Assembly (NCBI GenBank): GCA_963695985.1
Contig: CAVOIC010000001.1
Span: 33,188 to 97,187 of the forward strand
Length of the DNA: 64,000 nucleotides
Reading direction: 5' to 3'
Origin: an uncultured Gammaproteobacteria bacterium
GTDB taxonomy: Bacteria; Pseudomonadota; Gammaproteobacteria; Steroidobacterales; Steroidobacteraceae
Part shown: positions 3,447 to 55,933 of the stretch, piece after piece
Layout of the letters: every line of letters begins with the position of its first letter
Numbering within the stretch: the first letter of the stretch is position 1
Made by a program: the position numbers and the translations under genes
Notes under the pieces: model-generated
The model's input: only the letters and a program-made list of their open reading frames with translations
Databases searched by the model: none
Told to the model about the DNA's origin: nothing

Positions 3447-4580
3447 TCAATAGAAACCAAGGTGACGCCGTATTTCCTCCAGGGTGATCCGGCCACGCAA
3501 CACCCGAAACGTCCATGCCGTGTAGGCGAGCACCACCGGCAGCAAGACGATCACCGCGATCAGCATGATGGTCAGGGTCTTCGCGCTGCTGGAAGCGTCC
3601 CAGACCGTGAGCCCGTGGCCTGGGTGGGTGGAGGAGGGCATCAGGAATGGAAACAGCGCGATGCCTGCAGTTAGGATCGTGCCCGCCTGAGTGATGGCGC
3701 TCGCGAGAAAGGCGAGGCTCGAACGTCCGGAGCGCAGCAGCAGTTGCGCGAACAGCGCTCCCGCCACGGCGCCCGCCGGCGCCAACCACAAAAGGCCGTG
3801 CGCGCGAAAGTTGGCGAGCCATGCCCCACGTTCGACGATTACGTCTTTCAAGATCGGATTCGAAGGAGCGCTGGTGTCTATCGCCGACATGATGCGCTGA
3901 CCGTCCAGGGCACTGACCCAAACACCGGCCGCGATGAAGGCAATGACGAACACCAGCGCTGCCCAGCGGCCCACCGTGGCTGCGCGCCGGGCAATCGAGG
4001 CATCGACCTTGCCGGCTGCGTACACGGCACCGTGCAGGATGAACATCGACAGACTCACAAGCCCGCACAGTAACGCGAAGGGGTGCAGCAGGTTAAGAAA
4101 GCCCCCCGCGTAGAGTGGACGCTGCAGCTCATCGAAGTGAAACGGAATGCCGAGGAACAGGTTGCCGAAGGCGACGCCGAACAGCAGCGCAGGTACAGCG
4201 CCGCCGACGAACAAGGACCAGTCCCAGACGTTGCGCCATGCCGGGGCTGACAGCTTGCCGCGAAACGCGAAACCGACCGGCCGCAGAATCAGCGCGACCA
4301 GCACCAGGAACATGGCGAGATACAGCGCCGAAAACGACGCCGCGTACAGCAGCGGCCATGCCGCAAAGGCGGCACCACCGCCGAGGATGAACCAAACCTG
4401 GTTACCCTCCCACACCGGTTCGATCGATTCGAGCAGCGCGCGGCGCTCTTCGTCCGTGCGGCCGACGAAACGGAAGATCGCGCCCACACCCATGTCGAAC
4501 CCATCGGTCACGGCGAATCCGATGAGGAGCACGCCGAGAATCAGCCACCAGATCAGACGCAGGGTTTCGTAGTCGAGCAT
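3447..4580 (-). CDS. cydB: Cytochrome bd ubiquinol oxidase subunit II
   Basis: The 377-aa polytopic membrane protein starts MLDYETLRLIWWLILGVLLIGFAVTDGFDMG, which is typical of CydB. It lies immediately downstream of cydA. Confidence 0.95.
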   Translation of the reverse strand: MLDYETLRLIWWLILGVLLIGFAVTDGFDMGVGAIFRFVGRTDEERRALLESIEPVWEGNQVWFILGGGAAFAAWPLLYAASFSALYLAMFLVLVALILRPVGFAFRGKLSAPAWRNVWDWSLFVGGAVPALLFGVAFGNLFLGIPFHFDELQRPLYAGGFLNLLHPFALLCGLVSLSMFILHGAVYAAGKVDASIARRAATVGRWAALVFVIAFIAAGVWVSALDGQRIMSAIDTSAPSNPILKDVIVERGAWLANFRAHGLLWLAPAGAVAGALFAQLLLRSGRSSLAFLASAITQAGTILTAGIALFPFLMPSSTHPGHGLTVWDASSSAKTLTIMLIAVIVLLPVVLAYTAWTFRVLRGRITLEEIRRHLGFY

Positions 4581-4713: not shown

Positions 4714-6168
4714 CTATAGAAAACGAACGAAGCCCGTGAGCGACAGCCACACGTTCGTGGCCGTAGTCGTGGATACGCCGAGGAATGTGGGCAGCACTCC
4801 GTCTATGGCCCACGGTTGCCGTCCGTATTCGGCCACGATCCATCCGAGCTCGGCAGCGAGCCAGGGCAGCGGCAGACTCAGAAACGCGAGCCGCAGAAAC
4901 CATCGATTGCGCTCGAAGCCGTGGCTGGCGGAGAGGTAGAACGCAGCGCCGAACAGGAAAATGAAGAACAGCCCCAGCGCGACCATCACCCTGAAGCTCC
5001 AGAACAATACCGGGACGTTCGGTACCGTGGACCAGGCTGCGCGCGTGATCTCCTCGGGCGTTGCGGTCGCGGGGTTGGGCGTGTAACGCAACAGCAGCAG
5101 GCCGTATCCGAGGTCGGTCCGGTGCGCTTCGAACTCGGCCTGCGCCGCGACGTTGCCCGGATCGGCGCGCAGCGCCTGAAGCGCAGCGTGAGCACGCATG
5201 CCGCTTCCCACGCGCTGGCGCGCGCGTTCGACCAGCTCGTAGATGCCAGGTACCTCCTGGTCGAGCGAGCGCGTTGCAATCAACCCCAGCACCCACGGTA
5301 CCTTCAGTTCCGCGTGTGTCTTGTGTGCGGCGACGTCCGGCCATCCGAGCACCGTGAAGCCGGCCGGCGCCGGCTCGGTATGCCACTCCGCTTCGATGGC
5401 GGCGATTTTCATCTGCTGGTTTTCGCTTGCGACGTAGCCGGATTGATCGCCGAGCACGACGACGGACAGCGAGCAGGCAAGGCCGAAACTGGCCGCCACC
5501 GCCATGGAGCGTCGCGCCACCGCGAGATTGCGGCCGCGCAGCAGGTACCAGGCGCTCACGGCCAGCACGAACACGGAGCCGACGACGTAGCCTGCCGCGA
5601 CCGTGTGCACGAACTTCGCCTGCGCCACCGGATTGAAGAGCACCGCGCCAAAAGAAGTGAGCTCCATGCGCATGGTGCGGTAGTTGAATTCGGCTCCGAT
5701 CGGATATTGCATCCAGGCATTCGCCACCAGTATCCATAGCGCCGACAGGCTGGAGCCCAGTGCCACCAGCGCAGTAACGATCAGGTGTGCCACCTTCGAG
5801 AGTCGATCCCAGCCAAAGAAGAACAGGCCCACGAATGTCGATTCCAGAAAGAAGGCCATCAGTCCTTCGAGAGCGAGCGGGGTGCCGAAGATGTCGCCGA
5901 CAAAGTGCGAGTAGTAGGCCCAGTTGGTGCCGAACTGGAATTCCATCGTGACGCCGGTGGCCACTCCCATCGCGAAGTTGATGCCGAACAGCAGTCCCCA
6001 GAAGCGCGTCATGCGTTTCCAGATCTCGCGGCCGGTCATCACGTACACCGATTCCATGATGACGAGGATCATCGACAGTCCGAGCGTCAGCGGCACGAAC
6101 AAAAAGTGATACAGCGCGGTGAGGGCAAACTGCAGGCGCGACGGGTTCACCACAGCGAAATCGATCAT
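4714..6168 (-). CDS. cydA: Cytochrome bd ubiquinol oxidase subunit I, with the 3' end displaced by a +1 frameshift (corrected stop at 4596-4598)
   Basis: The N-terminus MIDFAVVNPSRLQFALTALYHFLFVPLTLG, GWDRLSK, a long Q-loop and the EYGRQPW motif are all present. The ORF stops after ...SLTGFVRFL. The adjacent frame continues with the canonical tail SFVFYSALAAVDAYLMTRMIRLGPDG... to TGA 4596-4598, 15 nt before the cydB ATG. Confidence 0.9.
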   Translation of the reverse strand: MIDFAVVNPSRLQFALTALYHFLFVPLTLGLSMILVIMESVYVMTGREIWKRMTRFWGLLFGINFAMGVATGVTMEFQFGTNWAYYSHFVGDIFGTPLALEGLMAFFLESTFVGLFFFGWDRLSKVAHLIVTALVALGSSLSALWILVANAWMQYPIGAEFNYRTMRMELTSFGAVLFNPVAQAKFVHTVAAGYVVGSVFVLAVSAWYLLRGRNLAVARRSMAVAASFGLACSLSVVVLGDQSGYVASENQQMKIAAIEAEWHTEPAPAGFTVLGWPDVAAHKTHAELKVPWVLGLIATRSLDQEVPGIYELVERARQRVGSGMRAHAALQALRADPGNVAAQAEFEAHRTDLGYGLLLLRYTPNPATATPEEITRAAWSTVPNVPVLFWSFRVMVALGLFFIFLFGAAFYLSASHGFERNRWFLRLAFLSLPLPWLAAELGWIVAEYGRQPWAIDGVLPTFLGVSTTTATNVWLSLTGFVRFL

Positions 6169-6434: not shown

Positions 6435-7487
6435 CCGGCAATGTTACCGCGGCGCCAGTGACGCAGGGTGAGGTACGCGCCCACCATGCCTCCGAGGTGT
6501 GCGAAGTGCGCGATGCCCTGTGAGGTTCCGAAAATGCCGCTCACCAGCTCGACGAGTCCATACAGCACGACAAAGAGCCATGCCGGCATGGGTATCGGTG
6601 GGTATGAGCAGGATCACGGTGCGCCTGGGATAGAGCACGGCGAACGCCAGCAGAATCCCGAAGACACCGCCCGACGCCCCGACGGTCGGGTAGGGGGTCC
6701 CGCTGAAGTTGATCGATGTCACGGCCAGTTGTACCAAGGCCGCGGACAGCACCGCGGCGAGGTAGAGACTGAGGAAGCGACCGGTTCCCAGCGTGCGCTC
6801 GACATCACGCCCGAACATGTAAAGCCCGAACATGTTCAGCGCGACGTGAGTGACATTGGCGTGCAGGAAGGCCGACGTGAGGAGCTGCCACGGCTGAAAG
6901 CCGACCGTGGCCTGCAGTTCCGGCAGGAAATGCCGCCCCACCGGCCAGAGGGCAAAGTTCACCAGCAGCGCGTCGCCGTACCAGGCCTGCAGCGCAAAGA
7001 CCGCGAGGTTGATCAGGATGAGCAGGCGCGTCACGGCCGCCATCATACGATGCGCCCGCCCCAACGCGGGCGCGCGATCATCACCGCCGGCCCCGCTATG
7101 CGCGCACTTTTGCGACGCGTCCGACAGCAGGCGTCGCACTTCCTCCGCGGTCGCCCGCAGCGCAGGATTGCCGGTGCGCTCCATGGAAGCCACCGGATCG
7201 ACAGCCGCCACTTCGATCTGACCGTTGGCCGTCTCGCGCACGATCACGTTGCACGGCAGCAGGACGCCGAGCTTGTCTTCGAGCTTGAGCGCCTCGTGTG
7301 CGAAGCGTGGATTGCAGGCACCGAGAATCCGGTACTTGTCGATCTGGGCGCCTATCTTTGACTTGAGGGTCGCCTGCACGTCGATGTCGGTGAGAACACC
7401 GAAACCTTGCTCCTTCAGACGGGCGGTGACGTCTGCAACGACCGCATCAAATGATCCGCTGACGGTCTTCGCGATGTAGTAGCTCAT
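6431..7487 (-). pseudogene. DUF302 domain joined in frame to a rhomboid intramembrane serine protease; the rhomboid part is frameshifted near 6599
   Basis: The N-terminal ~125 aa look like DUF302 (MSYYIAKTVSGSFD...YRILGACNP...LLPCNVIV). The rhomboid core follows (FLHANVTHVALNM, GASGGVFG catalytic Ser). After LLIP the listed frame becomes Arg-rich. The adjacent frame gives PIPMPAWLFVVLYGLVELVSGIFGTSQGIAHFAHLGGMVGAYL (catalytic His) and ends at TGA 6431-6433. The ORF-track coordinates are 6444..7487. Confidence 0.8.
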
Positions 7488-7509: not shown

Positions 7510-7854
7510 TCAGCGCCGGCAAAACTCCTGGTGCAACACTCCGATCAGCCTCGTGACGACGCCCGGCGGCAGCGAGTAGAGAATGCTCTGTGCGGTACGA
7601 TTGGTGGTGACGACTCCGGACTCACGCAGCACCGCCAGGTGCTGCGACAAGGCGGACTGGCTGAGCGGCAGCCCTGCATTGATCTCGCCCACGGAGCGCG
7701 GGCCCTGGACCAGCTGGCACAGGATCATCAGACGTTGCTCGTTGGCAAGTGCCTTCAGCAGCTGCGCGGCGCCGCTCGCATGGGGACGCATGTCACGTGC
7801 AGCTCGCGCCAGCCTCAGCGAATCGGCAGCGGATCGGGAGCGGGTACCTCGCAC
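7510..7854 (-). CDS. ArsR/SmtB-family transcriptional regulator, two-cysteine SqrR/BigR-like type
   Basis: A winged-HTH core is present (LKALANEQRLMILCQLVQGPRSVGEINAGLPLSQSALSQHLAVLRESGVV). There are only two Cys, 66 residues apart. I prefer the GTG start at 7854 (GGAGG 6 nt upstream). Alternatives are GTG 7884 and ATG 7791. Confidence 0.85.
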   Translation of the reverse strand: MRGTRSRSAADSLRLARAARDMRPHASGAAQLLKALANEQRLMILCQLVQGPRSVGEINAGLPLSQSALSQHLAVLRESGVVTTNRTAQSILYSLPPGVVTRLIGVLHQEFCRR

Positions 7855-7905
7855 GCGGGTCCTCCGTTGGTCATCTCGCAGCACATCATAATAAGCACTA
7901 TCTAA

Positions 7906-7921
7906 ATTAGCAATTGCTAAT
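7906..7921. promoter_or_regulatory. Perfect 16-bp palindrome ATTAGCAATTGCTAAT in the divergent promoter region (candidate ArsR operator)
   Basis: The sequence is self-complementary. It abuts TATAAT (7921-7926, plus strand). It also covers a TTGCTA -35 on the minus strand that lies 17 nt from TATGAT (plus-strand coordinates 7885-7890). It sits in the only AT-rich patch of the region. Confidence 0.55.
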
Positions 7922-8054
7922 ATAATGTACTGGTGCCGGGGCTGGATGCCTAGGTATTTTCCACAACTGGCTTGCCGCAGCTACGGATGCACCCGGCACG
8001 GCATTTTGACGACATTAGGCGGCGCACTGTCCGGAGCACCGGAGGGAGTTTCCA

Positions 8055-8258
8055 ATGAGCATCGACCGAATCGTACTGGCCTTTGCGGGCACCATGATCC
8101 TGCTGAGCCTGTTGCTCAGTCAGCTGGTCAGCCCGTGGTGGCTGCTGCTGGCAGCGTTCGTGGGGCTCAACCTCCTGCAGTCGGCCTTCACCGGCTTTTG
8201 CCCCCTGGCAATCATCCTGAAGAAGCTGGGCGTCAGACCTGGCGCGGCATTCGGCTGA
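8055..8258 (+). CDS. DUF2892 (YgaP-like transmembrane domain) small membrane protein
   Basis: The 67-aa product has two hydrophobic helices and the motif [14 protein letters not shown], which is typical of DUF2892. It is the first gene of the plus-strand operon. Confidence 0.85.
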
Positions 8259-8285
8259 TCCTTCGCGTTCGAGAGGTACGAGGCC

Positions 8286-9356
8286 ATGCGTGTGCGAGAG
8301 ACGATCGCGACGCTCTGCGTTGGCACTGTGCTGCTTGCAGGCTGTAGCCGGTCTAACGCGCCGCCAGTGGCGCAAAGTGCGCCAGCGGTCAGGGCAGTGG
8401 TCCTGCAGCCGACCCTTACTCCAGTGGAGCGCAGGCTCGATGGCGTCATCGAGGCCGTCAACCAGGGTACCGTCGCGGCGCAGACTTCGGGACGCGTCGA
8501 AGCGGTTCTCTACGATGTCAACGATTTCGTACCCGCTGGCGCAGTGATCTTACGCCTGCGCGCCACGGAGCAGCGTGCCGGTCTCCTGCAGGCGCAAGCC
8601 GCGCTGCGCGAGGCGACGGCGCGCGAGGCCGAAGCGCAGCAGCGCTATCGACGGATTGCCGACATGTACGAGCGCAAGGTCGTACCTAAGGCCACACTCG
8701 ATGAGGCCACGGCCAATCGGGACGCAGCGGTTGCCCGGCTGAGTGCCGCGCGCGCCGCGCTCGAGAGCGCGCAGGAAGGCGTTGCGTACACCGAAGTCCG
8801 GGCACCGTACGCGGGCATCGTGACCAAGCGCCTGGTCGAGGTCGGCGAGACCGTCGGTCCCGGCACGCCGCTGATGAGCGGCCTGTCGCTGCAATATCTG
8901 CGGGTGACGGTCGATATTCCGCAGTCGATCGTCGCGCAGGTACGCCGCATCAAGAAGGCGGCGGTCTACGTCGACGGACGCCGTATCGAGGCGACCAAGG
9001 TCACCGTGTTTGCGGAAGCCTCATCGCCCTCGAACACGTTTCGCGCGCGGCTCGAGCTCCCGGAAAACGCGACCGATCTGTTTCCCGGGATGTTCGTGAA
9101 GGCCGGCTTCGTGACCGGCGAGGCCGAGCGCCTTCTAGTGCCGGCAAGCGCGCTCGTCGTGCGCAGCGAAGTGACGGCCGTCTACGTGCTCGATTCGAGT
9201 GGACGCACGTCCATGCGACAGGTGCGCGTGGGCAGCCGCTTCGGCGACACAGTCGAGGTGCTCTCGGGGTTGGTCGCAGGCGAGCGTGTCGCGGTCGACC
9301 CGCTGGTCGCCATGAAAGACCTCAAGCCCGCGACGTCGTCAGGTCCGGGCGCATGA
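8286..9356 (+). CDS. Efflux RND transporter periplasmic adaptor subunit (membrane fusion protein)
   Basis: A lipoprotein signal is present (LLAGCS). The product has HlyD-type alpha-hairpin and beta-barrel architecture (VRAPYAGIVTKRLVEVGETVGPGTPL). Confidence 0.9.
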   Translation: MRVRETIATLCVGTVLLAGCSRSNAPPVAQSAPAVRAVVLQPTLTPVERRLDGVIEAVNQGTVAAQTSGRVEAVLYDVNDFVPAGAVILRLRATEQRAGLLQAQAALREATAREAEAQQRYRRIADMYERKVVPKATLDEATANRDAAVARLSAARAALESAQEGVAYTEVRAPYAGIVTKRLVEVGETVGPGTPLMSGLSLQYLRVTVDIPQSIVAQVRRIKKAAVYVDGRRIEATKVTVFAEASSPSNTFRARLELPENATDLFPGMFVKAGFVTGEAERLLVPASALVVRSEVTAVYVLDSSGRTSMRQVRVGSRFGDTVEVLSGLVAGERVAVDPLVAMKDLKPATSSGPGA

Positions 9357-9393
9357 TTGATGCGGGCGTTGGTGGGGGTCGGAGTACCGCGCC

Positions 9394-12300
9394 GTGAGCG
9401 ATGCGGTCGGCTTCAGCGGCCGCGTGGCGCAGCGGTTCCTGGGGAGCCAGCTCACACCGCTCCTGGCGCTCGCGGCCCTGCTTGATGGGTGTCTTCGCCG
9501 TGCTCGTGACGCCGCGCGAGGAAGAGCCGCAGATCGATGTCACGTTCGCCAACGTTTTCGTCGCCTTTCCCGGAGCTTCAGCCGAGCAGGTGGAGAACCT
9601 CGTGGCCTCGCCCCTGGAGCAGGTGCTCGGGGAAATTTCGGGCGTGGATCACATCTTCTCCACGTCCCGCCCAGGCCTCGCAATCCTCAGCGTTCAGTTC
9701 AAGGTGGGCGAGCGGCGCACGGACGCCATCGTGCGGCTCTACAACGCCATCTACTCGAACCTCGACTGGCGGCCGCCGAATGCGGGAATTCTCGCAGCCG
9801 TTGGTGAAGCCAAAAGGTATCGACGATGTTCCGATCGTCACGCTGACGCTCTGGACCGAGGATCCGAAACGCGGCACGCACGAGTCGGGGCAGGTTGCGC
9901 ACTCGATCGAGACTGAGATCAAGCGCGTGCCCGGTACACGCAACGTCTACACGATCGGCAGCCCGCAGAGCGTCATTCGCGTGGAGCTGGATCCGCAGAA
10001 GCTCGCCGGCTACGGCCTGACGACTGCTGACCTCTCGCGGGCATTGGTGGCGGCCAATGTCGTGCAGCACGTCGGCGCGCTGGTGGGCGAGAATCGCGTC
10101 ACGCCGGTGGACGCGGGGGAATTCCTGGCCAACCGCGATGATGTCGCGGGGCTCGTCGTCGCGGTCGATCGCGGCCGTCCGGTCTATCTGGAAGAAGTGG
10201 CCGACGTATCGGCACAGGCCGAACAACCCGGATCGTATGCCTGGCTTGGAACGGGTCCGGGCGCGGCTACGCGCGGGCTGCCGGATATCGCGCATGCTCC
10301 TGCGGTCACGATCGCGGTTTCGAAGCAGCCGGGCGTCAACGCGATCAGCGTCGCCCGCCAGGTGATCCAGCGAATCGAGCACCTGCGCGGCACCTACGTG
10401 CCTGAAGGCGTCGAGCTCACCGTGACGCGCAACTACGGCGAGACGGCCAACGACAAGGCCAAGAAGCTCATCGAGAAACTGCTCTTCGCCACAGCGTCCG
10501 TCGTGCTTCTGGTGATGCTCACCATGGGCCGACGGGAAGCCGTGGTCGTCGGCGCGGCAGTGACCGTCACTCTGGCAGCCACGTTGTTCGCTTCCTGGGC
10601 CTGGGGCTTCACGATCAACCGCGTTTCTCTGTTCGCGCTCATCTTTTCGATCGGCATCCTGGTGGACGATGCCATCGTGGTGGTGGAGAACATCCACCGC
10701 CACATGCGCCTGGGCGGCGGCACGCTGACCGAACTGATTCCGCGCGCCGTGGACGAGGTCGGCGGACCCGACCATCCTGGCTACCTTCACGGTCATCGCG
10801 GCACTGTTGCCGATGGCGTTCGTGAGCGGCCTGATGGGGCCATACATGAGCCCGATACCCATCAACTCGAGCATGGGCATGCTCATATCGCTCGCGGTCG
10901 CGTTGATCTTTACGCCGTGGCTGTGCCGCAAGCTTCTCGGCAGGAGCCACGCCAGCGAGGGCACACAGGAAGCCGCATGGTTGACGCGCGTGTTCGAGCG
11001 GCTCGTGCGCCCCTTTCTGGGCGCCGGCGCACGCCCGCGGCGCCACAAGCTCTATTGGGGAATTCTGGCGGCGATCTTGCTCGCGGTCGGACTGGTTACA
11101 GTGAAGCTGGTGGTATTGAAGATGCTGCCCTTCGACAACAAGTCCGAGTTTCAGGTCGTCGCCAATTTGCCCGAAGGGACCACGTTGGAAACGACTGCGC
11201 GGCTGCTGGATCAGTTGTCGCATGTCATCGAGCGCGTACCGGAAGTGAGCGACTACCAGGCTTACGCGGGCACTTCCGCACCGATCAACTTCAATGGGCT
11301 CGTGCGCCAATATTACCTGCGCCAGAGTCCCGAGCTGGGCGACGTCCAGGTCAATCTCGTCGACAAGCGCCACCGCAGCCGCAAGAGTCACGAGATTGCG
11401 CTTGCGGTCCGACCCCAGCTTGCCGCCATCGGCAGCAAATACGGCGCGTCGGTTCAGGTCGTCGAAGTGCCGCCGGGTCCGCCGGTACGGGCCCCGATCG
11501 TGGCCGAAGTGTACGGGCCGCGCTATGCCGAGCAGCGGCGCCTGGCGCAGCAGATCCGCGCAGTCTTCGACACTACCAAGGACGTCGTCGACGTGGACGA
11601 CAGCATCGAGGCATCGTCCCCGCGCTACGTGGTGGCTGTCGACCGGCAGAAGGCGGCACTGCTCGGCATCTCCGAGGAGCAGATCGTGCAGGCGATGGCC
11701 GCGGGACTGCAGGGCTCGGACGTCACCTACGTGCACCTGGGGCGCGAGCGCTATCCGATCCCGGTGCGCCTGCAACTGCCGGTGGCCAACCAGGCGAGTA
11801 TCGGGCAATTGCTCGAGCTCGAAGTCCGCTCGACGGGTGGCGCGCTCGTACCCTTGTCTGAACTCGTGAATGTACGCACCACCGAGTGGGACGGCGCCAT
11901 CCATCACAAGGATCTGCTCCCGGTGGCCTACGTCACGGGAGACATGGCCGGGCATCTCGATAGCCCGCTGTACGGCATGTTCGACATCGTCGGGCGCATC
12001 GGCCGGGAGTTCGCCGGCGCCGCGAAAATTGAACAACGCTTCGTGAGCCAGCCAGACGATCCGAACGCACAGACAATCAGGTGGGACGGGGAGTGGCGGA
12101 TCACCTACGAGACATTCCGCGACATGGGCATTGCCTATTCGGTGGGTCTGCTCCTCATCTATCTGCTGGTCGTAGCGCAGTTCGGTTCCTATGCGCTGCC
12201 GCTGATCATCATGGCGCCGATCCCGCTCACCATCATCGGCGTGATGCCGGGACACGCGCTCCTCGGCGCGCAGTTCACGGCGACTTCCATGATCGGGATG

Positions 12301-12609
12301 ATCGCGCTGGCCGGCATCATCGTGCGCAACTCTATCCTGCTGGTGGATTTCATCGATACGGAGCTGCGCGCGGGCCGCAGTCTCGAGGATGCCGTCATCC
12401 GTGCCGGTGCGATCCGGGCCAGGCCGATTGCGCTCACGGCGTTGGCGGCCATGATTGGCGCGTTTTTCATTCTCGACGATCCGATCTTCAACGGGCTCGC
12501 CGTGTCACTCATCTTCGGCATCTTCGTCTCGACCGTGCTCACGCTGCTGGTGATCCCGGTCCTTTACTACGCCTATCTCAACCGGAGCACGGCGCGCGCT
12601 GCGCGCTGA
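9394..12609 (+). pseudogene. RND efflux permease (AcrB/CzcA superfamily), interrupted by three +1 frameshifts
   Basis: A continuous RND-like protein can only be read by changing frame three times. The first change is near 9484 (..QLTPLLALAALL | MGVFAVLVTPREEEPQIDV). The second is near 9791 (..DWRPPNAGI | SQPLVKPKGIDDVPI). The third is at 10767 in a CCC run (..AVDEVGG | PTILATFTVIAALLPMAF). The total is ~1070 codons. The conserved SIGILVDDAIVVVENI motif is present. Confidence 0.9.
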
Positions 12610-12620
12610 GGAGGAACATC

Positions 12621-13901
12621 ATGGCTCACGTTGCAATCATCGGTGCGGGCATCGGTGGCGTGCCTTGCGCCTATGAGCTGCGCAAGCGACTCGGCAAGCA
12701 GCATCGCATCACCCTGATCGGAAGCGCGCCCCACTTCGAATTCACACCGTCGAACCCCTGGATCGCGGTCGGCTGGCGCAAGCGCGAGCAGACGCGCGTC
12801 GCTCTGCATGAGCCGCTCGAGAAGAAGGGCATCCAGTGGCTGGCGGAAGCCGTGACCCTGATCGACCCGGCCACCAGGACGCTTACCCTGCACGATGGGC
12901 ATCGGCTCGAATACGACTACCTCGTGATCACCACCGGGCCGAAGCTCGCCTTCGAGGAAGTACCCGGCCTGGGCCCGGAAGGCCACACGCAATCGATCTG
13001 CACCCAGGAACATGCGGCACGCGCGTGGGAGAAGTATCAGGAGTTCCTGCAGAACCCGGGCCCGGTAGTAGTCGGGGCCGCAGCGGGCGCGAGCTGTTTC
13101 GGGCCGGCGTATGAGTTCGCGATGATCATCGACGCGGACCTGCGCAAGCGCAGATTGCGCGATCGCGTGCCGATAACGTTCGTTACCAGCGAACCCTACA
13201 TCGGACATATGGGTCTCGGCGGCGTCGGGGACAGCAAGGGACTCATGGAGTCGGAGCTGCGCCAGCGCCATATCAAATGGATCACCAACGCCAAGATCAC
13301 CGCCGTCGCGGCCGGATTGATGTCCGTGACCGAGGTCGACGATGAAGGCAAGCCGAGGAAGGAAGCGCAGCTGCCATTCCAGTATGCGATGGTCATTCCA
13401 GCCTTCAAGGGTGTCGATGCCGTCGCAGCCGTGCCGGAGCTGTGCAATCCGCGCGGCTTCGTGCAGATCGACCCGCACCAGCGCTCGAAGAAGTATCCCA
13501 ACATCTACTCGGCCGGTGTGTGCGTCGCGATTCCTCCGGTCGAGGTGACACCGGTGCCTACGGGAGCGCCCAAGACCGGCTACATGATCGAATCGATGGT
13601 GAGCGCAATCTGTGAAAACATCGCAGCCGAGCTGGCCGGCCAGCCGGCGAGCGCGCAGGCCACCTGGAACGCGATCTGCCTTGCCGACTTCGGAGATACC
13701 GGGGCGGCGTTTGTTGCCCTGCCGGAGATTCCGCCGCGCAACGTCACATGGACGAAGGTCGGCAAGTGGGTCCACGTGGCGAAGATTGCCTTCGAGAAGT
13801 ACTTCCTGCGCAAGGTGCGCACCGGCTCGGTCACACCGGTGTACGAGAAGTACGTGCTGAAGGTGCTCGGCATCGCGTCGTTGAAGCAGGTTCGGCCATG
13901 A
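12621..13901 (+). CDS. sqr: Sulfide:quinone oxidoreductase, type I-like
   Basis: ATG at 12621 is preceded by GGAGGA. The N-terminal FAD fold is VAIIGAGIGG. Cys127 (SICTQ), Cys159 (GASCFGPAYEF) and Cys352 (AICLADFG) are present. The product is 426 aa. Confidence 0.9.
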   Translation: MAHVAIIGAGIGGVPCAYELRKRLGKQHRITLIGSAPHFEFTPSNPWIAVGWRKREQTRVALHEPLEKKGIQWLAEAVTLIDPATRTLTLHDGHRLEYDYLVITTGPKLAFEEVPGLGPEGHTQSICTQEHAARAWEKYQEFLQNPGPVVVGAAAGASCFGPAYEFAMIIDADLRKRRLRDRVPITFVTSEPYIGHMGLGGVGDSKGLMESELRQRHIKWITNAKITAVAAGLMSVTEVDDEGKPRKEAQLPFQYAMVIPAFKGVDAVAAVPELCNPRGFVQIDPHQRSKKYPNIYSAGVCVAIPPVEVTPVPTGAPKTGYMIESMVSAICENIAAELAGQPASAQATWNAICLADFGDTGAAFVALPEIPPRNVTWTKVGKWVHVAKIAFEKYFLRKVRTGSVTPVYEKYVLKVLGIASLKQVRP

Positions 13902-15205
13902 GCGCGCGCCGGGCGGCGCAACCCTTCGCGCTGGCGTTGCTCGTAGCACTCACGTCACCAGGTGCACTCGTGGCAGAGACGCTGCAGGACGCCTGGCAGC
14001 TGGCCGTCGCCCGGGACAAGGCGCTCGCCGCAGCGACTCTCGATGTGGAAGGTGCGCAAGCCGAGGAACGCGCGGTGCGCGGTGCGCGTTGGCCATCGCT
14101 GGAAGCCGGCGCGGGCTACACGTTTCTCAACGAGTCCCCACGGTTCGATATCTCGACGTCGACCGGGACCTTTCGCTCCGGACCGATCTTCGAGGACGAC
14201 CAGTTTCTCGCCGCCACCGTGCAAGTAAAGCTGCCGCTGTACACCGGTGGGCAGATTCGGGCGCGAATCAATGCCGCCCAGCAGGCCGCACTGGGCGCAT
14301 CCGAGAACGAGCAGGCCACAGCTATGGCGTTGAGGCTTGATGTAGCCGAGGCCTACGTCAGCGTGCTGCGCGCGCGGCGCGCTCTGCGAGCGGCCGAATC
14401 GAGCGTGGAGAGCCTCACAGCTCACGTCGGCGACGTGCAACAGATGGTGGAGCGCGACCTGGTGCCGACGAGTGACCTTCTGGCGGCGCGGGTTGCTCTC
14501 GCCAACGCCGAGCAGCGCCGTGTGCGTGTGGCCAATTCGGTCGAGATCGCGCAGGCCACATACAACCGCCGCCTGGGCGAACCGCTGGCGCGCTCACCCG
14601 AGCTGGATGAGACGCTACCGGTCGATGCCTCGCTCCCCGACACGCCGATCGAGGAGCTGATTGGGCGCGCCGTCGAATCCCGCAGCGAGCTCAAGGTCCT
14701 GCAGGCGCAGGCCGACGCCTTAGCCTCGCGGTCGCGCGCCGAGAAGGGCAGGCTTCTGCCACAGCTGGCGCTGACAGGCGGTTATGCGCATCTCGACAAC
14801 GAAATACTGGATCGCCAGGATGTCTCGATGATCGGCGTCGGGTTTGCCTGGAACGTGTTCGATGGCGGACAGGCGCGCAATCACGCCGCGGCGCTGGACA
14901 GCGCAAGCCGCGCCACGAGGAGTCGACTGGAGGACCTGCACTCGATGATCGAGCTGGAAGTGCGCCAGGACTGGCTGGGCGTGCAGGAGGCGCGGGCGCG
15001 GGTGAAGGCCTCGCGCGAGGCCGTCGCACAGGCGCAAGAGAACCTGCGGATCTCGCGCGAGCTTTATGGCGGGGGCCTCGGCACCAACACCCAGGTGCTG
15101 GATGCCGTCACGCTGGAGGTCGAGGCGATCAATAACCAGAACAACGCCAATCTTGACGAATCGCTCGCCACGTTGCGCCTCGCGCGGGCGGTCGGTGCCC
15201 TCTGA
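13898..15205 (+). CDS. TolC-family outer-membrane efflux factor
   Basis: A signal peptide is present (ALALLVALTSPGALVA). Two repeated coiled-coil/OEP halves follow (LLPQLALTGGYAH...). The start overlaps the sqr stop (ATGA). Confidence 0.9.
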   Translation: MSARRAAQPFALALLVALTSPGALVAETLQDAWQLAVARDKALAAATLDVEGAQAEERAVRGARWPSLEAGAGYTFLNESPRFDISTSTGTFRSGPIFEDDQFLAATVQVKLPLYTGGQIRARINAAQQAALGASENEQATAMALRLDVAEAYVSVLRARRALRAAESSVESLTAHVGDVQQMVERDLVPTSDLLAARVALANAEQRRVRVANSVEIAQATYNRRLGEPLARSPELDETLPVDASLPDTPIEELIGRAVESRSELKVLQAQADALASRSRAEKGRLLPQLALTGGYAHLDNEILDRQDVSMIGVGFAWNVFDGGQARNHAAALDSASRATRSRLEDLHSMIELEVRQDWLGVQEARARVKASREAVAQAQENLRISRELYGGGLGTNTQVLDAVTLEVEAINNQNNANLDESLATLRLARAVGAL

Positions 15206-15227: not shown

Positions 15228-15989
15228 ATGCTCAAGCTCTACCACGCGGAACCCGTTGCCAACTCGCTCAAGGCGCTGATTGCCCTGAAGGAGAAAGGAC
15301 TCGAGTTCCAGAGCATCTATGTCGATCTGCACAAGTTCGAGCAGCACGAGCCCTGGTTCGTCGCCATCAACCCGGAGGGCCAGGTACCGGTGCTGGACCA
15401 CGATGGGTTCATTGTCACGCACACCACCGTGATCAATGAGTACCTCGAGGATGCATTCCCGGAGGCGCCGGCGCTGCGGCCCGCCGACCCGCAGGGCAAG
15501 GCGCGCATGCGCTACTGGAACAAGTTCTGCGACGAGCACGTCATGAACTACGTGTCCATGCACGGCTGGCATCGCATGGTCGCGATCATTGCGCGGTCGG
15601 TCGACGCGGGTGAGTTCGAGCGGCTGATGGCACGCATCCCGCTGCACGAGCAGCGCGAGAAGTGGCGCACGGCGCGCTCGGGCTTCAGCCCGGCGGATCT
15701 CGCCAACGCCACGCGCAAGATCGAAGTGGCGGTGGACAAGGTGGAGAAGCAGCTCGCTGCGACACCGTGGCTGGCGGGATCGATGTATACCCTCGCCGAT
15801 GTAAACTTCTTCGCCTATTGCGGCGTGTCGCTGCAACGCATGTTTCCGGAGATGAAGCTCGAGACGCGTGCGCCACGTCTGCTCGACTGGCTGGCGCGCG
15901 TGCGCGCACGTCCCGGCGTGAAGGCGGCGCTGGCGATGCCGGATCGTACGAACCCGGCGCTACGAACCTTCACGGGCGAGGCGCGCTGA
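15228..15989 (+). CDS. Glutathione S-transferase family protein, LigF-like (beta-etherase clade) by motif resemblance
   Basis: KLYH..ANSLK..IALKEKGLEF....VDLHKFEQHEPWF..INPEGQVPVLDHDG..VT....I.EYLEDAFPE...LRPADP resembles the Sphingobium LigF N-terminus as I remember it. The gene starts 22 nt after the OMF stop. Confidence 0.8.
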   Translation: MLKLYHAEPVANSLKALIALKEKGLEFQSIYVDLHKFEQHEPWFVAINPEGQVPVLDHDGFIVTHTTVINEYLEDAFPEAPALRPADPQGKARMRYWNKFCDEHVMNYVSMHGWHRMVAIIARSVDAGEFERLMARIPLHEQREKWRTARSGFSPADLANATRKIEVAVDKVEKQLAATPWLAGSMYTLADVNFFAYCGVSLQRMFPEMKLETRAPRLLDWLARVRARPGVKAALAMPDRTNPALRTFTGEAR

Positions 15990-25027: not shown

Positions 25028-26029
25028 ATGATTTGCGACATCGAACTGAATTCCGCTGCGCACTATCCCGTGCGCGATATCGTGGAGCTCTCGCCCCAGA
25101 TCGAAGCTGCGGGCTTCGGCGCGTTCTGGAAAGGCGAATCCAACAGTACCGACCCGCTCGTGCTCCTGTCCGCGATTGCCGCGCGCACCCGGACGCTGAA
25201 GCTCGGCACGGCGATCTATCATATTTATGGCCGCAGCCCGGTCAGCCTCGGCATCCAGTCCGCGACGCTGCAGGACTTGTCGGCAGGACGGCTGCTGCTC
25301 GGCCTCGGTGTTGCCAACAAGACTATCGCCGCCTGGCACAACGGGGTCTTCGATCGTCCCTTGCGCCGCGCCCGCGAATATATCGAGATCGTGAAGAAGG
25401 TGGCCGCAGGCGAGCGCGTCGAATATCAGGGCGAGATCTATTCCACCGGGCAGCGGTTCCAGCTTTCCTGGCACCCCTCGCACCCGACATTCCCAGTCTA
25501 TCTGGCGGGTCTCGGCCCGCAGATGACCAACCTCGTGGGGAAGATCTCTGACGGCGTATTTATCAACATGGCAACGCCCGCGACCATTCGGGCGATTGCG
25601 CAGCGCGTGCGCGATGGAGCGGTCGAAGCCGGTCGCGATCCGTCGAAACTCGAGATCATCGTCAAGGTACGGGTGTCCTTGAACCCGGACCGCGCGAAGG
25701 CGCGCTCGAAGCTGCGCCAGGTCCTCACGTTCTACAACATCGCCGATCACTACAAGGACATGCTCATCGCCTCGGGCTTCGAGCCTGAAGTGACGGCAAT
25801 TCAAGAGGCGTTCAAGGCCGGAGGCTTCAAGGCGGCAGCAACCAAAGTGACGGACGAGTACATGGACAAGCTGCCGGTGATACCCGCGACGTCGATCAAG
25901 GAGGTGAAGGATCGCTTGCAGCCCTTCGTCGAGGCCGGCGCCACGCGCCTCATCGTTCCGTACGTTCCGGTTACCGAACCGGTCATCGAGGATGCGCGGC
26001 GCTTCGTCGAGGCCTGGGGCAAAGCCTGA
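25028..26029 (+). CDS. Luciferase-like monooxygenase (LLM) class oxidoreductase, probably F420-dependent
   Basis: The TIM-barrel LLM pattern is present (FGAFWKGES...LKLGTAIYHIYGRSP...GRLLLGLGV), with Mer-like length. F420 dependence is inferred only from the co-operonic F420 genes. Confidence 0.8.
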   Translation: MICDIELNSAAHYPVRDIVELSPQIEAAGFGAFWKGESNSTDPLVLLSAIAARTRTLKLGTAIYHIYGRSPVSLGIQSATLQDLSAGRLLLGLGVANKTIAAWHNGVFDRPLRRAREYIEIVKKVAAGERVEYQGEIYSTGQRFQLSWHPSHPTFPVYLAGLGPQMTNLVGKISDGVFINMATPATIRAIAQRVRDGAVEAGRDPSKLEIIVKVRVSLNPDRAKARSKLRQVLTFYNIADHYKDMLIASGFEPEVTAIQEAFKAGGFKAAATKVTDEYMDKLPVIPATSIKEVKDRLQPFVEAGATRLIVPYVPVTEPVIEDARRFVEAWGKA

Positions 26030-31651: not shown

Positions 31652-34549
31652 GTGAGGGTTTGTGCGATCGTCGCGGCGCGCTCGCGGGGTGCCAAGAGCC
31701 GACTCGCGCCCGTGCTTTCGCCGGACGGCCGTGCTGCGCTCGCCCGCTCGATGCTGACCCAGGTTCTTCGTTCGGTGAGAGCCGCGCGCGGTATCGATCA
31801 CATCATGCTCGTGACGACGGATGAAGAAGGGCCGGTGCCCGCTGGCGTTGAGGTGGTTCGCGACGCGGGCATGGGTCAGTCTGCGGCTGTCGCGACCGGA
31901 CTTGCGCACGTCGCCGACACGGCCGACGCAGCGATCGTACTCGCCGCTGATACGCCGAACACTTCGCCGCAGGAGATTGAGCACTTGATCGCGGCCTTGG
32001 CGGACCGCGATGTCATCGTCGCCCCCGACCGGCGCGGCGAGGGCACGAATGCACTGGGGCTGCGTCTTCCCGCGCGCATTCAACTGCAATTCGGTGGACC
32101 GAGCCTGACGGCACATCTGCGCTCGGCCGAGGAGCTGGGCGCCCGGACGGCGATCATCGAGTTGCCTGGCTTGGCTCACGACATCGACCTGCCAGAGGAT
32201 CTCGTGGATGAGCCGTTGCCGCGCGAATCCGCCCTGCGGTTGGTGGAGGAGGGCGATCTTACAACCATGATGGAGCGGGCCTCGGCGTTGGCCTTGCAGG
32301 GCTTTGGCCAGCGGGTCGGCTATTCGCGCAAGGTCTTCATCCCACTCACCCAGCTCTGCCGCGATGTCTGCCATTACTGCACCTTCGCCGGCCCGGCGCC
32401 GAGACACGCACGAGCTTTTCTGACACCGGAGGAAGTGCTCAGCTTGGCGCGGGCGGGTGTGAACGCCGGCTGCACCGAAGCGCTCTTCACCTTGGGAGAC
32501 AAGCCCGAGCTGCGTTACGCGTCCGCGCGCGATGAGCTCAGAAGTCTCGGTTTCGCGACGACCCTCGAATATCTCACGCATTGCGCGCGCCTCGTGTTCG
32601 AGCACACGGGATTGCTGCCACACTTGAATCCGGGTGTCATGCAGCACGCCGATTTCGCAGCCCTGCGGCCCGTGTCGGCCTCGATGGGTATCATGCTGGA
32701 GACGAGCGCAACGCGGCTCATGGAACCAGGGATGCCGCATCACCGCTCGCCCGACAAGCATCCGACGATGCGCATCGCGACGCTGCGCGCCGCCGGGGAA
32801 GCGGCCGTGCCATTCACGACGGGTCTGTTGGTCGGAATCGGTGAAACACGGGCTGAGCGCATTGAGACGCTGCTCGCCATTCGTGAGCTGCACGAGGAGT
32901 TCGGCCACATCCAGGAACTGATCATCCAGAATTTCCGTGCTAAGCCCGGTACGCGGATGGCACGCTACCCCGAACCGCCACTCGAAGAGCTCCTCTGGAC
33001 GATAGCCGCCGCGCGCCTCCTGTTCGGTCCATCGATGTCGATACAGGTTCCGCCCAACCTGAGCCCCACGCACCTGCCAGCACTGATCAGCGCGGGTCTC
33101 AATGACTGGGGCGGCGTATCACCGGTTACGCCGGATCATGTGAATCCGGAAGCGCCTTGGCCCGACATCACCGCGCTCGAGCGCGAAACACGGGCCGCGG
33201 GGCGCTGGCTCGTGCAACGGCTGCCGATCGTGCCTTCCTTCGCAATCGATGGCGAGAGATGGCTCGACCCGGCACTTCGCACCGCGGTGCTGCGCCGGAT
33301 CGATGCGCAGGGCTATGTCCGCGAGGACGCTTGGACAGCAGGTTCCGGATCACTGCCACCCACGCGTTACGGCCGGCTGCTGGACAGAAAGTCGGAACGC
33401 GCCCCCGCGTCCCGCTCGTTGCGGGCCGTGCTCGAACGTGTTCGAGAAGGCAAGCCGCCGGACGAACAGCATATCGCGCAACTCTTCGCATCGGATGGCG
33501 CTGATTTCACGGCAGTCGTGCAACACGCTGACGCCTTACGCGAGGAGACAGTTGGCGATGCTGTCAGTTATGTGGTGAATCGGAACATCAATTACACCAA
33601 TATCTGCAGCTACTCCTGCGGCTTCTGCGCGTTCGCCAAGGGTCGTAGCGCCAAGGCGCTGCGCGGACCGGGCTACAACTTCGACCTTGACGAGATCGAA
33701 CGGCGAGTTGCCGAGGCCGCGGACCGTGGCGCGACCGAGGTTTGCCTGCAGGGTGGCATCCACCCACGCTACACGGGCCAAACGTACCTGCAGATCGTCG
33801 GGGCGGCCAAGGGCGCCGCCCCTGGTATCCACGTGCACGCGTTCTCGCCACTCGAGATCTCTCATGGCGCTGCCACTCTGGGCTTGTCATTGGCCGAATA
33901 CTTGTTGCGCCTGAAGGAGGCGGGCTTGAGCACACTGCCGGGCACCGCCGCCGAAATTCTCTGCGACGACGTGCGTGCGGTGATCTGCCCGGACAAACTG
34001 AGTTCCGCCGAATGGCTTCAGGTCATGCGCACGGCGCACGACATCGGGATCCGCAGCACCGCAACCATCATGTTCGGGCATGTCGAGCGGCCCGTGCACT
34101 GGGCCAGGCACCTGCTGGCGATCCGCAGCCTGCAGGAGGAAACCGGCGGCTTCACGGAATTTGTGCCGTTACCGTTCGTGCACATGGAGGCGCCCTTGTG
34201 GCGATCCGGCCGTGCCCGGTCCGGGCCGAGCTTCCGCGAGGCGATACTGATGCACGCGATCTCCCGAATCGTGCTGTATCCGCTGTTCCCGAACATTCAG
34301 ACTTCATGGGTCAAGATGGGCCGGCAGGGTGCGCTCGCGGCGCTCGCCGCCGGGGCTAACGATCTGGGTGGCGTGTTGATGGACGAGTCGATCACGCGCG
34401 CCGCGGGTGGCGTCAACGGCCAGCAATTGGATTCAAAAGACATGCAGGCCGCGATCCGTTCGATCGGTCGCTCGCCGCGCCAGCGGACGACACTCTATAA
34501 AGATGCTTCTCGACCGACACGGATATTCGCCGAAGCCGCTGCGGGCTGA
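31652..34549 (+). CDS. fbiC: Triple fusion: CofC/FbiD-like guanylyltransferase + FO synthase CofG + CofH (FbiC)
   Basis: The N-terminal ~195 aa are CofC-like (AIVAARSRGAKSRL..., APDRRGEGTNALGL...QFGGPS). Two radical-SAM CxxxCxxC motifs follow, CRDVCHYC (32357-32380) and CSYSCGFC (33605-33628). It is a single 965-codon ORF with a GTG start after GGAG. Confidence 0.9.
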   Translation: MRVCAIVAARSRGAKSRLAPVLSPDGRAALARSMLTQVLRSVRAARGIDHIMLVTTDEEGPVPAGVEVVRDAGMGQSAAVATGLAHVADTADAAIVLAADTPNTSPQEIEHLIAALADRDVIVAPDRRGEGTNALGLRLPARIQLQFGGPSLTAHLRSAEELGARTAIIELPGLAHDIDLPEDLVDEPLPRESALRLVEEGDLTTMMERASALALQGFGQRVGYSRKVFIPLTQLCRDVCHYCTFAGPAPRHARAFLTPEEVLSLARAGVNAGCTEALFTLGDKPELRYASARDELRSLGFATTLEYLTHCARLVFEHTGLLPHLNPGVMQHADFAALRPVSASMGIMLETSATRLMEPGMPHHRSPDKHPTMRIATLRAAGEAAVPFTTGLLVGIGETRAERIETLLAIRELHEEFGHIQELIIQNFRAKPGTRMARYPEPPLEELLWTIAAARLLFGPSMSIQVPPNLSPTHLPALISAGLNDWGGVSPVTPDHVNPEAPWPDITALERETRAAGRWLVQRLPIVPSFAIDGERWLDPALRTAVLRRIDAQGYVREDAWTAGSGSLPPTRYGRLLDRKSERAPASRSLRAVLERVREGKPPDEQHIAQLFASDGADFTAVVQHADALREETVGDAVSYVVNRNINYTNICSYSCGFCAFAKGRSAKALRGPGYNFDLDEIERRVAEAADRGATEVCLQGGIHPRYTGQTYLQIVGAAKGAAPGIHVHAFSPLEISHGAATLGLSLAEYLLRLKEAGLSTLPGTAAEILCDDVRAVICPDKLSSAEWLQVMRTAHDIGIRSTATIMFGHVERPVHWARHLLAIRSLQEETGGFTEFVPLPFVHMEAPLWRSGRARSGPSFREAILMHAISRIVLYPLFPNIQTSWVKMGRQGALAALAAGANDLGGVLMDESITRAAGGVNGQQLDSKDMQAAIRSIGRSPRQRTTLYKDASRPTRIFAEAAAG

Positions 34550-35358: not shown

Positions 35359-35368
35359 GCCCACAGGC

Positions 35369-51688: not shown

Positions 51689-51778
51689 TGGTCAAAAAAA
51701 CAACCAACGCGTCCATACTGATGGTAGTTTCGCAAGGACCGTGTTCGGCGGTCCGCGGCGACGAACAGAGGTATTCGC

Positions 51779-54099: not shown

Positions 54100-54111
54100 A
54101 GGGCTGGCGCG

Positions 54112-55098: not shown

Positions 55099-55105
55099 AC
55101 CTGGG

Positions 55106-55906: not shown

Positions 55907-55933
55907 CTCTCCGAAATAGCCGCGACATCCACC

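Follow-up and report, generated by a model that had tools for sequence, protein, structure and literature searches.

The DNA analysed here is a 64,000-nucleotide stretch of contig CAVOIC010000001.1 from an uncultured gammaproteobacterium of the family Steroidobacteraceae; the whole stretch is called the window below. It contains a locus in which the gene of a sulfide:quinone oxidoreductase (SQR, sqr) lies within an operon encoding a resistance-nodulation-division (RND) efflux pump. According to the open reading frame (ORF) listing and direct reading of the sequence, five genes follow one another on the plus strand, namely, those of a DUF2892 membrane protein, a lipoprotein periplasmic adaptor (MFP), an RND permease, a type I SQR, and a TolC-like outer-membrane factor (OMF, omf). 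A repressor gene of the ArsR family is divergent from them. The following features were identified:

7510-7884, minus strand: two-Cys ArsR-family repressor of the SqrR/BigR/HlyU type, divergent from the operon (Pfam HTH_5, 3.6e-14)
7903-7924, no strand: predicted palindromic operator, an 11+11 nt inverted repeat
8055-8258, plus strand: DUF2892/YgaP-like small membrane protein, 67 aa, first cistron (Pfam PF11127, YgaP-like_TM, 3.7e-13)
8286-9356, plus strand: periplasmic adaptor (MFP) lipoprotein (lipobox LLAGC in the translation; Pfam HlyD_D23, 5.8e-17; NCBIfam RND_mfp, 201 bits, cut-off 94.9)
9394-12609, plus strand: RND permease, HAE-1-like, with three single-base insertions (Pfam ACR_tran, 1e-76, C-terminal half)
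12610-12615, plus strand: ribosome-binding site of sqr, GGAGGA (direct reading)
12621-13901, plus strand: type I SQR, 426 aa (match to the Acidithiobacillus ferrooxidans SQR 3sz0; Pfam Pyr_redox_2, 8.9e-21)
13898-15205, plus strand: TolC-family OMF (Pfam OEP, 6.9e-56, two repeats; NCBIfam TolC family, 134 bits, below the cut-off)

The intergenic gaps in the operon are, in order, 27, 37, 11, and -4 nt. The permease gene ends with the TGA codon at 12607-12609, the ATG codon of sqr is at 12621, and the stop codon of sqr shares the ATGA sequence at 13898-13901 with the start codon of omf. The five ORFs and both sqr junctions had been given in the same way in the initial annotation, and the ORF listing, direct reading, and family scans all agree with it. 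No terminator-like sites were found on the plus strand between 7400 and 16100, and the sole promoter-like site in this interval is located on the minus strand (7913-7885), which argues against an internal promoter in the operon. The description of sqr as an internal cistron of the pump operon is supported by the tight junctions and by the recurrence of the linkage in related genomes. A Pfam scan of approximately 49 window ORFs detected no domains of persulfide dioxygenase (PDO), rhodanese, or TauE, in line with the lack of these proteins that had been noticed before.

Encoded proteins and the putative operator

Residues 2-423 of the SQR align with residues 5-429 of the A. ferrooxidans enzyme (3sz0/3t2z; E = 3.5e-166 for 3sz0). 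Similarity with the Aquifex SQR (3hyv) was also found (1.1e-115), whereas type II and human SQRs gave only about 1e-18. The alignment extends over the full length of type I enzymes and takes in their membrane-binding region at the C-terminus, and the motifs SICT, GASCFGPAYE, and NAICLAD match 3sz0 column for column, corresponding to Cys128, Cys160, and Cys356 of the A. ferrooxidans protein. The FAD-binding Rossmann motif (GxGxxG) is represented by IIGAGIGG at residues 6-13, and the Pyr_redox_2 domain covers residues 3-302. The type I assignment, made earlier from the GAGIGG fold and the three Cys motifs, is confirmed by the alignment to 3sz0; judging from its sequence, the window enzyme is a type I SQR, with a predicted activity of sulfide-dependent quinone reduction and polysulfide as the predicted product.

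The permease, corrected for the three insertions described below, is 1070 aa long. Its nearest relatives of solved structure are MdtB (E = 5e-71, full length), TriC, CmeB, MexB, MexK, and AcrB, and the 60 top matches of solved structure that were shown include no CusA or CzcA chain. With a multidrug-type NCBIfam model, the C-terminal half of the protein scored 217 bits, as opposed to 137.5 bits with the CusA/CzcA model TIGR00914. The fourth transmembrane (TM) helix carries the motif VDDAIVVVEN, which we take to be of the HAE-1 type and not of the metal-pump type. These features suggest that the pump is HAE-1-like rather than metal-type and forms a distinct subfamily.

Conservation in the permease was analysed using 105 full-length intact orthologues. 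The proton-relay residues are present, as the TM4 pair D424/D425, R977, and R1007 are invariant in this set; R977 presumably represents an Arg at the position of AcrB Lys940 (TM10). As many as 32% of the permease positions are at least 95% conserved, which points to selection on the pump and suggests that its task is specific and not promiscuous. The same orthologues share no conserved Cys, nor do they have a conserved Met/His cluster in the periplasmic part. Both the cognate adaptor and the OMF needed for a tripartite pump are encoded: the adaptor, which has a lipobox, exceeds the RND_mfp cut-off, and the OMF contains two OEP repeats. The second-best NCBIfam match of the adaptor was the CzcB/NccB family (138.7 bits). 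Homologues of the DUF2892 protein were identified in 83 of 160 loci and share the conserved motif FVGxNLxQxxFTxFCP, in which the Cys of FCP is invariant; the DUF2892 gene adjoins the pump genes even at loci with no SQR nearby.

HlyU, BigR, SqrR, and YgaV belong to the two-Cys persulfide-sensing branch of the ArsR family. When the window repressor was compared with solved structures using phmmer, the matches were HlyU (2e-22), BigR (3pqj, 3e-18), SqrR (6o8l, 6e-18), and YgaV (3e-15). Its Cys56 (ILCQL) and Cys122 (EFCR) align to the HlyU cysteines located in ILCML and LYCE, a sensing pair with one Cys in helix 2 and the other close to the C-terminus, and both residues are invariant in all 31 of the 31 homologues adjoining related loci. 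The ArsR/SmtB winged-helix fold was recognised by the NCBIfam model HTH_metalloreg (83.8 bits, cut-off 55). With the BigR equivalog model of NCBIfam, the repressor scored 82.9 bits and did not reach the cut-off of 155; therefore, it is a relative of BigR and not a strict BigR. The GTG start codon of the repressor ORF (7884) coincides with the -10 element of the minus-strand promoter-like site, so the true start is probably located downstream, for example, at Met32 near 7791. Similarity of the repressor to its solved relatives starts at approximately residue 21-30.

A 22-bp palindrome without a spacer (half-sites TAAATTAGCAA and TTGCTAATATA, 91% complementary) lies at 7903-7924, between the regulator and DUF2892 genes. 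It overlaps the operon-facing TATAAT sequence (7921-7926) and also the -35 element of the minus-strand promoter-like site, which runs from 7913 to 7885. The CTAAATTAG...CTAATATAA motif recurs in the regulator-operon intergenic DNA of the related loci L002-L017, L018, L027, L047, and L056, and TTGACT was found 17 nt upstream of the operon -10 element in some relatives. The overlap of the palindrome with the -10 element is what would be expected of a repressor-controlled promoter, and the palindrome is considered a putative operator. The divergent SqrR/BigR/HlyU-type repressor, the conserved putative operator, and the neighbouring cydAB genes (see below) were all overlooked in the initial annotation; taken together, they make the region recognisable as a sulfide-response locus.

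Linkage of SQR and the pump in other genomes

The 80 closest SQR homologues (64-82% identity), taken from one genome per species, were examined by tblastn with the window proteins, and linkage was recorded when an orthologous permease (at least 45% identity) was present within 10 kb. Such a permease was found near SQR in 53 of the 80 genomes, and in four more the module was partial, being truncated where the contig ends. The linked loci belong to Steroidobacteraceae, Lysobacterales, Woeseiaceae, Solimonas, Methylophilaceae, and many Burkholderiales (Rubrivivax, Ideonella, Rhodoferax, Curvibacter, Polaromonas), with the closest homologues of both SQR and the permease coming from Steroidobacteraceae. 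The linkage thus spans Gamma- and Betaproteobacteria and is extended to Alphaproteobacteria by an Azospirillum plasmid. The linked genes occur in at least seven orders:

ArsR< DUF2892-MFP-RND-SQR-OMF (window order): 9 genome-set loci
ArsR< SQR-DUF2892-MFP-RND: 8 genome-set loci
MFP-RND-SQR-DUF2892: 11 genome-set loci
MFP-RND-DUF2892-SQR: 9 genome-set loci, many with a TolC-type OMF (cluster c9) between DUF2892 and SQR
SQR-OMF-MFP-RND: 2 genome-set loci
Divergent arrangement: 1 genome-set locus
MFP-SQR-RND-DUF2892: metagenomes only (L113, L117)

The embedding of sqr is not essential, as in relatives the gene may come at the beginning or the end, lie between those of the adaptor and the permease, or be divergent. 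In loci of the same order as the window, including L002-L004, L006, L008, L010, L013, L014, L017, and L081, the OMF gene is located directly 3' of sqr. Where sqr follows the permease gene (35 loci), it starts 1-70 nt past the permease stop codon in 33 cases and about 300 nt past it in the other two; a GGAG-type site precedes sqr at this junction in the 35 related loci. The identities of SQR and the permease to the window proteins co-vary (r = 0.81, 57 loci), indicating that the two genes travel together. A gene-neighbourhood check for SQR flanked by an RND permease and an OMF, which had been proposed with the initial annotation, thus revealed an association kept across three proteobacterial classes with tight junctions. 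The assertion that sqr is not a chance neighbour of the pump gains support from the proportion of linked species-level genomes and from the several gene orders. No pump was found, despite full flanks, around the SQR genes of Thiodiazotropha, Sedimenticola, Chromatiaceae, Gallionella, Sulfurifustaceae, and Acidihalobacter; these pump-less loci include classical sulfur-oxidiser lineages, which lends circumstantial support to a role of the pump in disposal.

The linkage was also analysed from the side of the pump. When metagenomes were scanned with the C-terminal half of the permease, 80 orthologues (56-79% identity) were obtained. Type I SQR was present in the retrieved flank of 12 of these 80 loci and in 5 of the 22 that had at least 2.5 kb on both sides; DUF2892 adjoined the pump in 38 and 14 of them, respectively. 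The large number of pump loci without SQR indicates that the job of the pump may exceed the handling of the SQR product. Among 150 flanking ORFs taken from pump loci without SQR, a Pfam census revealed OMF, DUF1538, thioredoxin/Trx2, ArsR, rhodanese, and AhpC, and no other dominant enzyme. In three such metagenomic loci (L083, L091, L095; six ORFs), paired genes of DUF1538 membrane proteins are located directly 3' of the permease gene.

According to the clustering of flanking ORFs, the recurring partners are TrxC (cluster c6; 26 loci, e.g., L011, L017, L019, L021, L022, L027), a second TolC-type OMF (16 loci), an AhpD-domain protein (8 loci), and a CsoR/RcnR-family regulator that takes the place of ArsR in 14 Burkholderiales-type loci. 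The c6 protein is a thioredoxin 2 with an N-terminal zinc ribbon (142.9 bits, cut-off 125); no trxC gene was found among the window ORFs scanned. The CsoR/RcnR/FrmR-family regulator was detected in L023, L028, L037, L040, L045, L052, and L053, at about 11.4-12.4 kb in full-length loci. Its representative from L028 has a Cys pair and carries Arg instead of His at the fourth residue before the second Cys, from which we infer a resemblance to CstR. Apparently, one and the same module has recruited sensors from two unrelated families.

Several annotated replicons provide a wider context. Azospirillum brasilense Sp7 encodes a 56%-identical type I SQR and a DUF2892 protein divergently from MFP-RND-rhodanese genes, with ArsR and TrxC nearby. 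In Paracoccus pantotrophus, the pump genes are located behind an ArsR gene in an island with PDO-like (MBL-fold), YgaP-like, DUF6691, DUF442 sulfur-transferase, and YeeE-like genes, which also holds a distant SQR-like flavoprotein. Vibrio sp. HDW18 carries the DUF2892-adaptor-permease module alone. The DUF2892-adaptor-permease module thus belongs to sulfide- and persulfide-response islands generally. The SQR clade of the window is the most frequent enzymatic partner of the pump module.

Insertions in the permease gene and the surroundings of the operon

The window permease gene lacks an uninterrupted frame and is read in frame 1, 2, 3, and then 1 again. Alignment to intact orthologues attributed this to single extra bases at 9482, 9793, and 10767 (10766/10767). 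Three frameshifts had been noted in this gene initially; they are present in the sequence and unique to the window copy. As written, the gene would give a 137-aa fragment, and deletion of the three bases restores a 1070-aa ORF without internal stops. The corrected product deviates at one of the 311 positions that are near-invariant among the 105 orthologues, equalling or surpassing 78% of the intact genes. The protein search additionally detected an intact 1070-aa homologue with 95% identity (P0001). Its contig (L164) shares the ArsR-DUF2892-MFP-RND-sqr layout with 89.7% DNA identity, and the indels in the coding DNA of the shared 5.6 kb are the three insertions and, in the adaptor gene, a single 3-nt indel that keeps the frame. 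Among 133 loci with a permease orthologue, the gene is intact in 105, cut by contig ends in 27, and in more than one frame in one. The only related locus besides the window with a two-frame permease is L029 (2-728, at a contig end of an Alcaligenaceae metagenome-assembled genome).

All three insertions are within 1.3 kb of one gene and outside long homopolymers. For about 45 other ORFs of the window, the Pfam matches covered nearly the full length, and no split genes were noticed among them; since GC3 frame plots and greedy ORF tiling were uninformative on other frameshifts in this DNA (63% GC), Pfam coverage was used instead. The lesions, being unique to the window copy and unaccompanied by other decay, are either errors or very recent. 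A generally error-ridden assembly was rejected because the other genes are intact and the comparison with L164 reveals a single other coding indel. Programmed frameshifting was rejected as well, as the three separate sites share no motif and are missing from the 105 orthologues. A long-dead pseudogene was rejected on account of the single deviation at the near-invariant positions. An in-frame stop at 44647, also considered, represents the boundary of two adjacent genes of E1 dehydrogenase subunits.

It is possible, with somewhat less than even chances, that the pump gene of this organism is a recent pseudogene, that only sqr (perhaps with the adaptor and omf genes) is working, and that the coupling is vestigial in the window genome. 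The concentration of three independent insertions in one gene, their position outside long homopolymers, the integrity of the other window ORFs, and the separate ribosome-binding site of sqr would all agree with such recent decay; against it speak the stop-free ORF obtained after removal of three bases, the single deviation from the near-invariant positions, and the intact 95%-identical relative with its one other, in-frame, coding indel. In addition, three +1 insertions sum to +3 and are compatible also with local consensus errors. The pump works in the window organism only if the insertions are sequence errors.

Beyond the repressor gene, the window contains the genes of a cytochrome bd oxidase:

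3447-4580, minus strand: cydB (Pfam Cyt_bd_oxida_II, 1.5e-100)
4714-6168, minus strand: cydA (Pfam Cyt_bd_oxida_I, 4.6e-162)

Cytochrome bd oxidase is sulfide-insensitive. Homologues of cydA/cydB were found near SQR in about 10 related loci (e.g., L041, L046, L069, L074, L076); cydAB is a probable accessory of the sulfide locus, outside the operon, and cytochrome bd may be an electron outlet for SQR.

Between cydA and the repressor gene, a 347-aa ORF (6444-7487, minus strand) joins a DUF302 domain (35-98) to a rhomboid protease domain (198-297). In the relatives L013 and L081, a DUF302 gene of about 124 aa adjoins the ArsR regulator alone, and the window ORF represents either a genuine fusion or the merger of two frames. 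On the other side of the operon, 22 nt past omf, there is a glutathione S-transferase gene (GST; 15228-15989, plus strand). It was rejected as a member of the conserved module, as no GST homologue was found in the 80 related genome loci, and it is a lineage-specific addition. Farther away, a 965-aa ORF (31652-34549, plus strand) contains a CofC-like guanylyltransferase, two radical-SAM stretches, and a CofH C-terminal region and looks like a CofC-FbiC-type fusion. Genes of CofD (35246-36322, plus strand) and a luciferase-like monooxygenase (25028-26029, plus strand) are located near it; such an F420-biosynthesis set would not have been expected in a gammaproteobacterium. The region 50822-58528 contains genes of enoyl-CoA hydratase, thiolase-like, ChsH2-type OB-fold/zinc-ribbon, zinc-ADH, and acyl-CoA synthetase proteins; they suggest steroid, fatty-acid, or branched side-chain catabolism, which fits the Steroidobacteraceae affiliation of the closest homologues.

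Possible function of the locus and its relation to known systems

The association of SQR with an RND pump has been noticed before. In Azospira suillum PS, the operon Dsui_3440-3443 encodes a hypothetical protein, an RND pump, an SQR, and an adaptor (Mehta-Kolte et al., mBio 2017, PMC5358917). Under H2S, the log2 values of all four genes rose from about 1-4 to 8.6-10.6, and this was the only operon flagged by Bar-seq; a separate Azospira DUF2892 gene was induced approximately 10-fold (PMC5358917). In a survey of two-Cys ArsR sulfane-sulfur regulators, RND pumps were listed among the likely targets, and one regulator clade is marked as RND-adjacent in the supplementary tree (Li et al., Mol Microbiol 2025, PMC12423496). 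Beyond these two precedents, nothing was found in the literature, the papers on A. caldus, P. putida, Methylophilus, and A. vinosum being off this linkage. The initial annotation knew of no described SQR-RND coupling, and this part of it does not hold. Its internal cistron, type I SQR, and non-chance neighbourhood stand; the regulatory and respiratory context was added here. The SQR-pump coupling is documented but unexplained, and the window represents a further case of an already noticed locus type.

We propose that the locus is a persulfide-derepressed sulfide-stress operon whose pump most likely expels sulfane sulfur derived from SQR; we give this reading a probability of about 45%. The divergent two-Cys ArsR repressor would sit on the palindrome over the operon -10 element and keep the promoter blocked. 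Upon sulfide entry, sulfane sulfur would bridge the two Cys residues of the repressor and cause its release, by analogy with its characterised relatives. Derepression would lead to a single transcript for the DUF2892 protein, adaptor, permease, SQR, and OMF. The type I SQR, bound to the membrane, would then oxidise H2S and pass the electrons to quinone, with the neighbouring cytochrome bd oxidase as a plausible sulfide-tolerant outlet, and zero-valent sulfur (polysulfide or S8) would grow on the SQR cysteines. With no PDO, rhodanese, or sulfite exporter encoded at the locus to handle this product, the RND pump would most likely take sulfane-sulfur species, such as S8, polysulfanes, or organic adducts, from the periplasm or the outer leaflet and expel them past the outer membrane. 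The DUF2892 protein with its invariant Cys would be an accessory of the pump module, possibly a subunit or a sulfur relay.

The type I SQR of R. capsulatus is reported as periplasmic (title of Schutz 1999). Given this report, the absence of PDO, rhodanese, and TauE, and a pump of the type handling hydrophobes and amphiphiles that has its own channel, SQR-derived sulfane sulfur would be the most economical substrate. The best-supported reading is that of a persulfide-derepressed operon for sulfide stress, with SQR and the pump acting on the same problem.

Several observations weigh against export of the SQR product. The window permease is frameshifted three times, and the pump module often occurs with no type I SQR nearby, as the metagenomic loci demonstrate. 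The 105 permease orthologues do not share a periplasmic cluster of Cys or Met residues of the kind that might hint at sulfur chemistry. No paper was found that proposes or tests RND export of the SQR product, and none of those found identifies the substrate of the pump. In Azospira, deletion of sqr or of the whole operon left the rate of perchlorate-dependent H2S oxidation unchanged (PMC5358917); as this oxidation was credited to perchlorate reductase, the result is only weak evidence against the proposal.

A stronger version, in which the DUF2892-adaptor-permease(-OMF) set is a dedicated machine for extrusion of zero-valent sulfur that gathers S8 or polysulfide produced by SQR at the cytoplasmic membrane and drives it out through the outer membrane, with the Cys of DUF2892 acting as a hand-off site or its protein as a pump subunit, is somewhat unlikely. 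If true, this would make it the first family of RND pumps to carry inorganic sulfur, and it would provide the missing step for Gram-negative sulfide oxidisers that neither store sulfur nor oxidise it further.

A broader role in detoxification during sulfide stress is the main rival of sulfane-sulfur export, even if we judge it somewhat unlikely. Here, the pump would be a general detoxification pump induced by sulfide or persulfide, and SQR and the pump would be independent arms of one regulon; the cargo would not be the direct product of SQR and could consist of other lipophilic compounds that arise or become toxic under sulfide stress, e.g., organic persulfides, thiol adducts, or reduced quinone-like compounds. 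The frequent occurrence of DUF2892-adaptor-permease genes with ArsR but without a nearby type I SQR is in accordance with this view, and so are the thiol-stress neighbours, namely, TrxC in the 26 loci, AhpD-domain protein, AhpC, and rhodanese, along with GST in the window. The HAE-1-like permease likewise belongs to a class that handles diverse hydrophobic compounds. It is the tight linkage to one SQR clade (53/80), the operon-tight junctions in 35 loci, and the high conservation of the permease, suggestive of a specific task, that a general pump would leave unaccounted for.

For the Azospira pumps, it was suggested that sulfide-induced RND pumps export metal sulfides (PMC5358917). Such export, or that of metal cations mobilised by sulfide, agrees with the CzcB/NccB match of the adaptor and is otherwise improbable for the window pump: a metal pump of the CusA/CzcA (HME) kind is disfavoured by the family scores and structure matches of the permease, by its TM4 motif of the HAE-1 type, and by the lack of a conserved periplasmic Met or His cluster, and the regulators are of the persulfide and not the metal type. 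That SQR and the pump are functionally unlinked neighbours, brought together by hitch-hiking or a shared genomic island, is very improbable, since in spite of some close SQR homologues having full 10-kb flanks without a pump, the linkage persists in Gamma-, Beta-, and Alphaproteobacteria through seven or more rearranged gene orders, with operon-tight junctions, co-varying identities, and H2S co-induction of the four Azospira genes.

The locus is of interest because SQR yields poorly soluble, reactive sulfane sulfur. In the literature, no described route was found for the disposal of this sulfur, especially across the outer membrane, by cells without downstream oxidation enzymes. An RND subfamily linked to SQR together with a small Cys-bearing membrane protein and persulfide-sensing regulators is a concrete candidate for such a route. 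The module is present in the cultivable Azospira suillum PS, Azospirillum brasilense Sp7, and Paracoccus pantotrophus, and the pump family is widespread in Proteobacteria of soil, sediment, and wastewater, where its current label of multidrug efflux pump could mislead resistance-gene surveys.

As for known systems, the SQR resembles the type I enzymes of A. ferrooxidans and Aquifex aeolicus (3sz0/3t2z, 3hyv) over its full length and in all three catalytic Cys motifs. It differs from them in its pump context, found here in loci of Steroidobacteraceae, Lysobacterales, and Burkholderiales. The pump shares with AcrAB-TolC and MexAB-OprM a lipoprotein adaptor, a 12-TM proton-driven permease, and a TolC-like channel, but the similarity is distant (the best match being MdtB), Arg replaces the TM10 Lys, and the window operon includes an enzyme gene. 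The small membrane protein encoded alongside the pump recalls AcrZ of AcrAB-TolC, although DUF2892 is unrelated to AcrZ, and it is gene adjacency alone that suggests its association with the permease.

The closest system in gene content, compared by its published description, is the Azospira operon Dsui_3440-3443, with a small protein, an RND permease, an SQR, and an adaptor. The implied Azospira order, adaptor-SQR-permease-small ORF, is that of L113 and L117. Unlike in the window, no OMF is listed there, and sqr is located between the adaptor and permease genes, not between those of the permease and OMF. In its control, the window locus is similar to the SqrR/BigR/HlyU/YgaV regulons, which likewise include a two-Cys ArsR gene divergent from genes of sulfide oxidation and transport, an AT-rich palindromic operator (a putative one in the window), and RND neighbours. 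Classical SqrR/BigR-type regulons pair SQR with PDO, rhodanese, TauE, or YeeE, whereas the RND pump is the sole transporter of the window locus.

The cst operon of Staphylococcus aureus is a CstR-regulated tauE-cstA-cstB-sqr operon. It is comparable to the window locus in that a persulfide sensor controls SQR and an exporter for a downstream sulfur product, and CsoR-family regulators stand in for ArsR in the Burkholderiales versions of the locus. The cst system oxidises sulfane sulfur further and uses a single-component exporter of the cytoplasmic membrane, whereas the window locus has no further-oxidation enzyme and encodes an exporter that spans both membranes.

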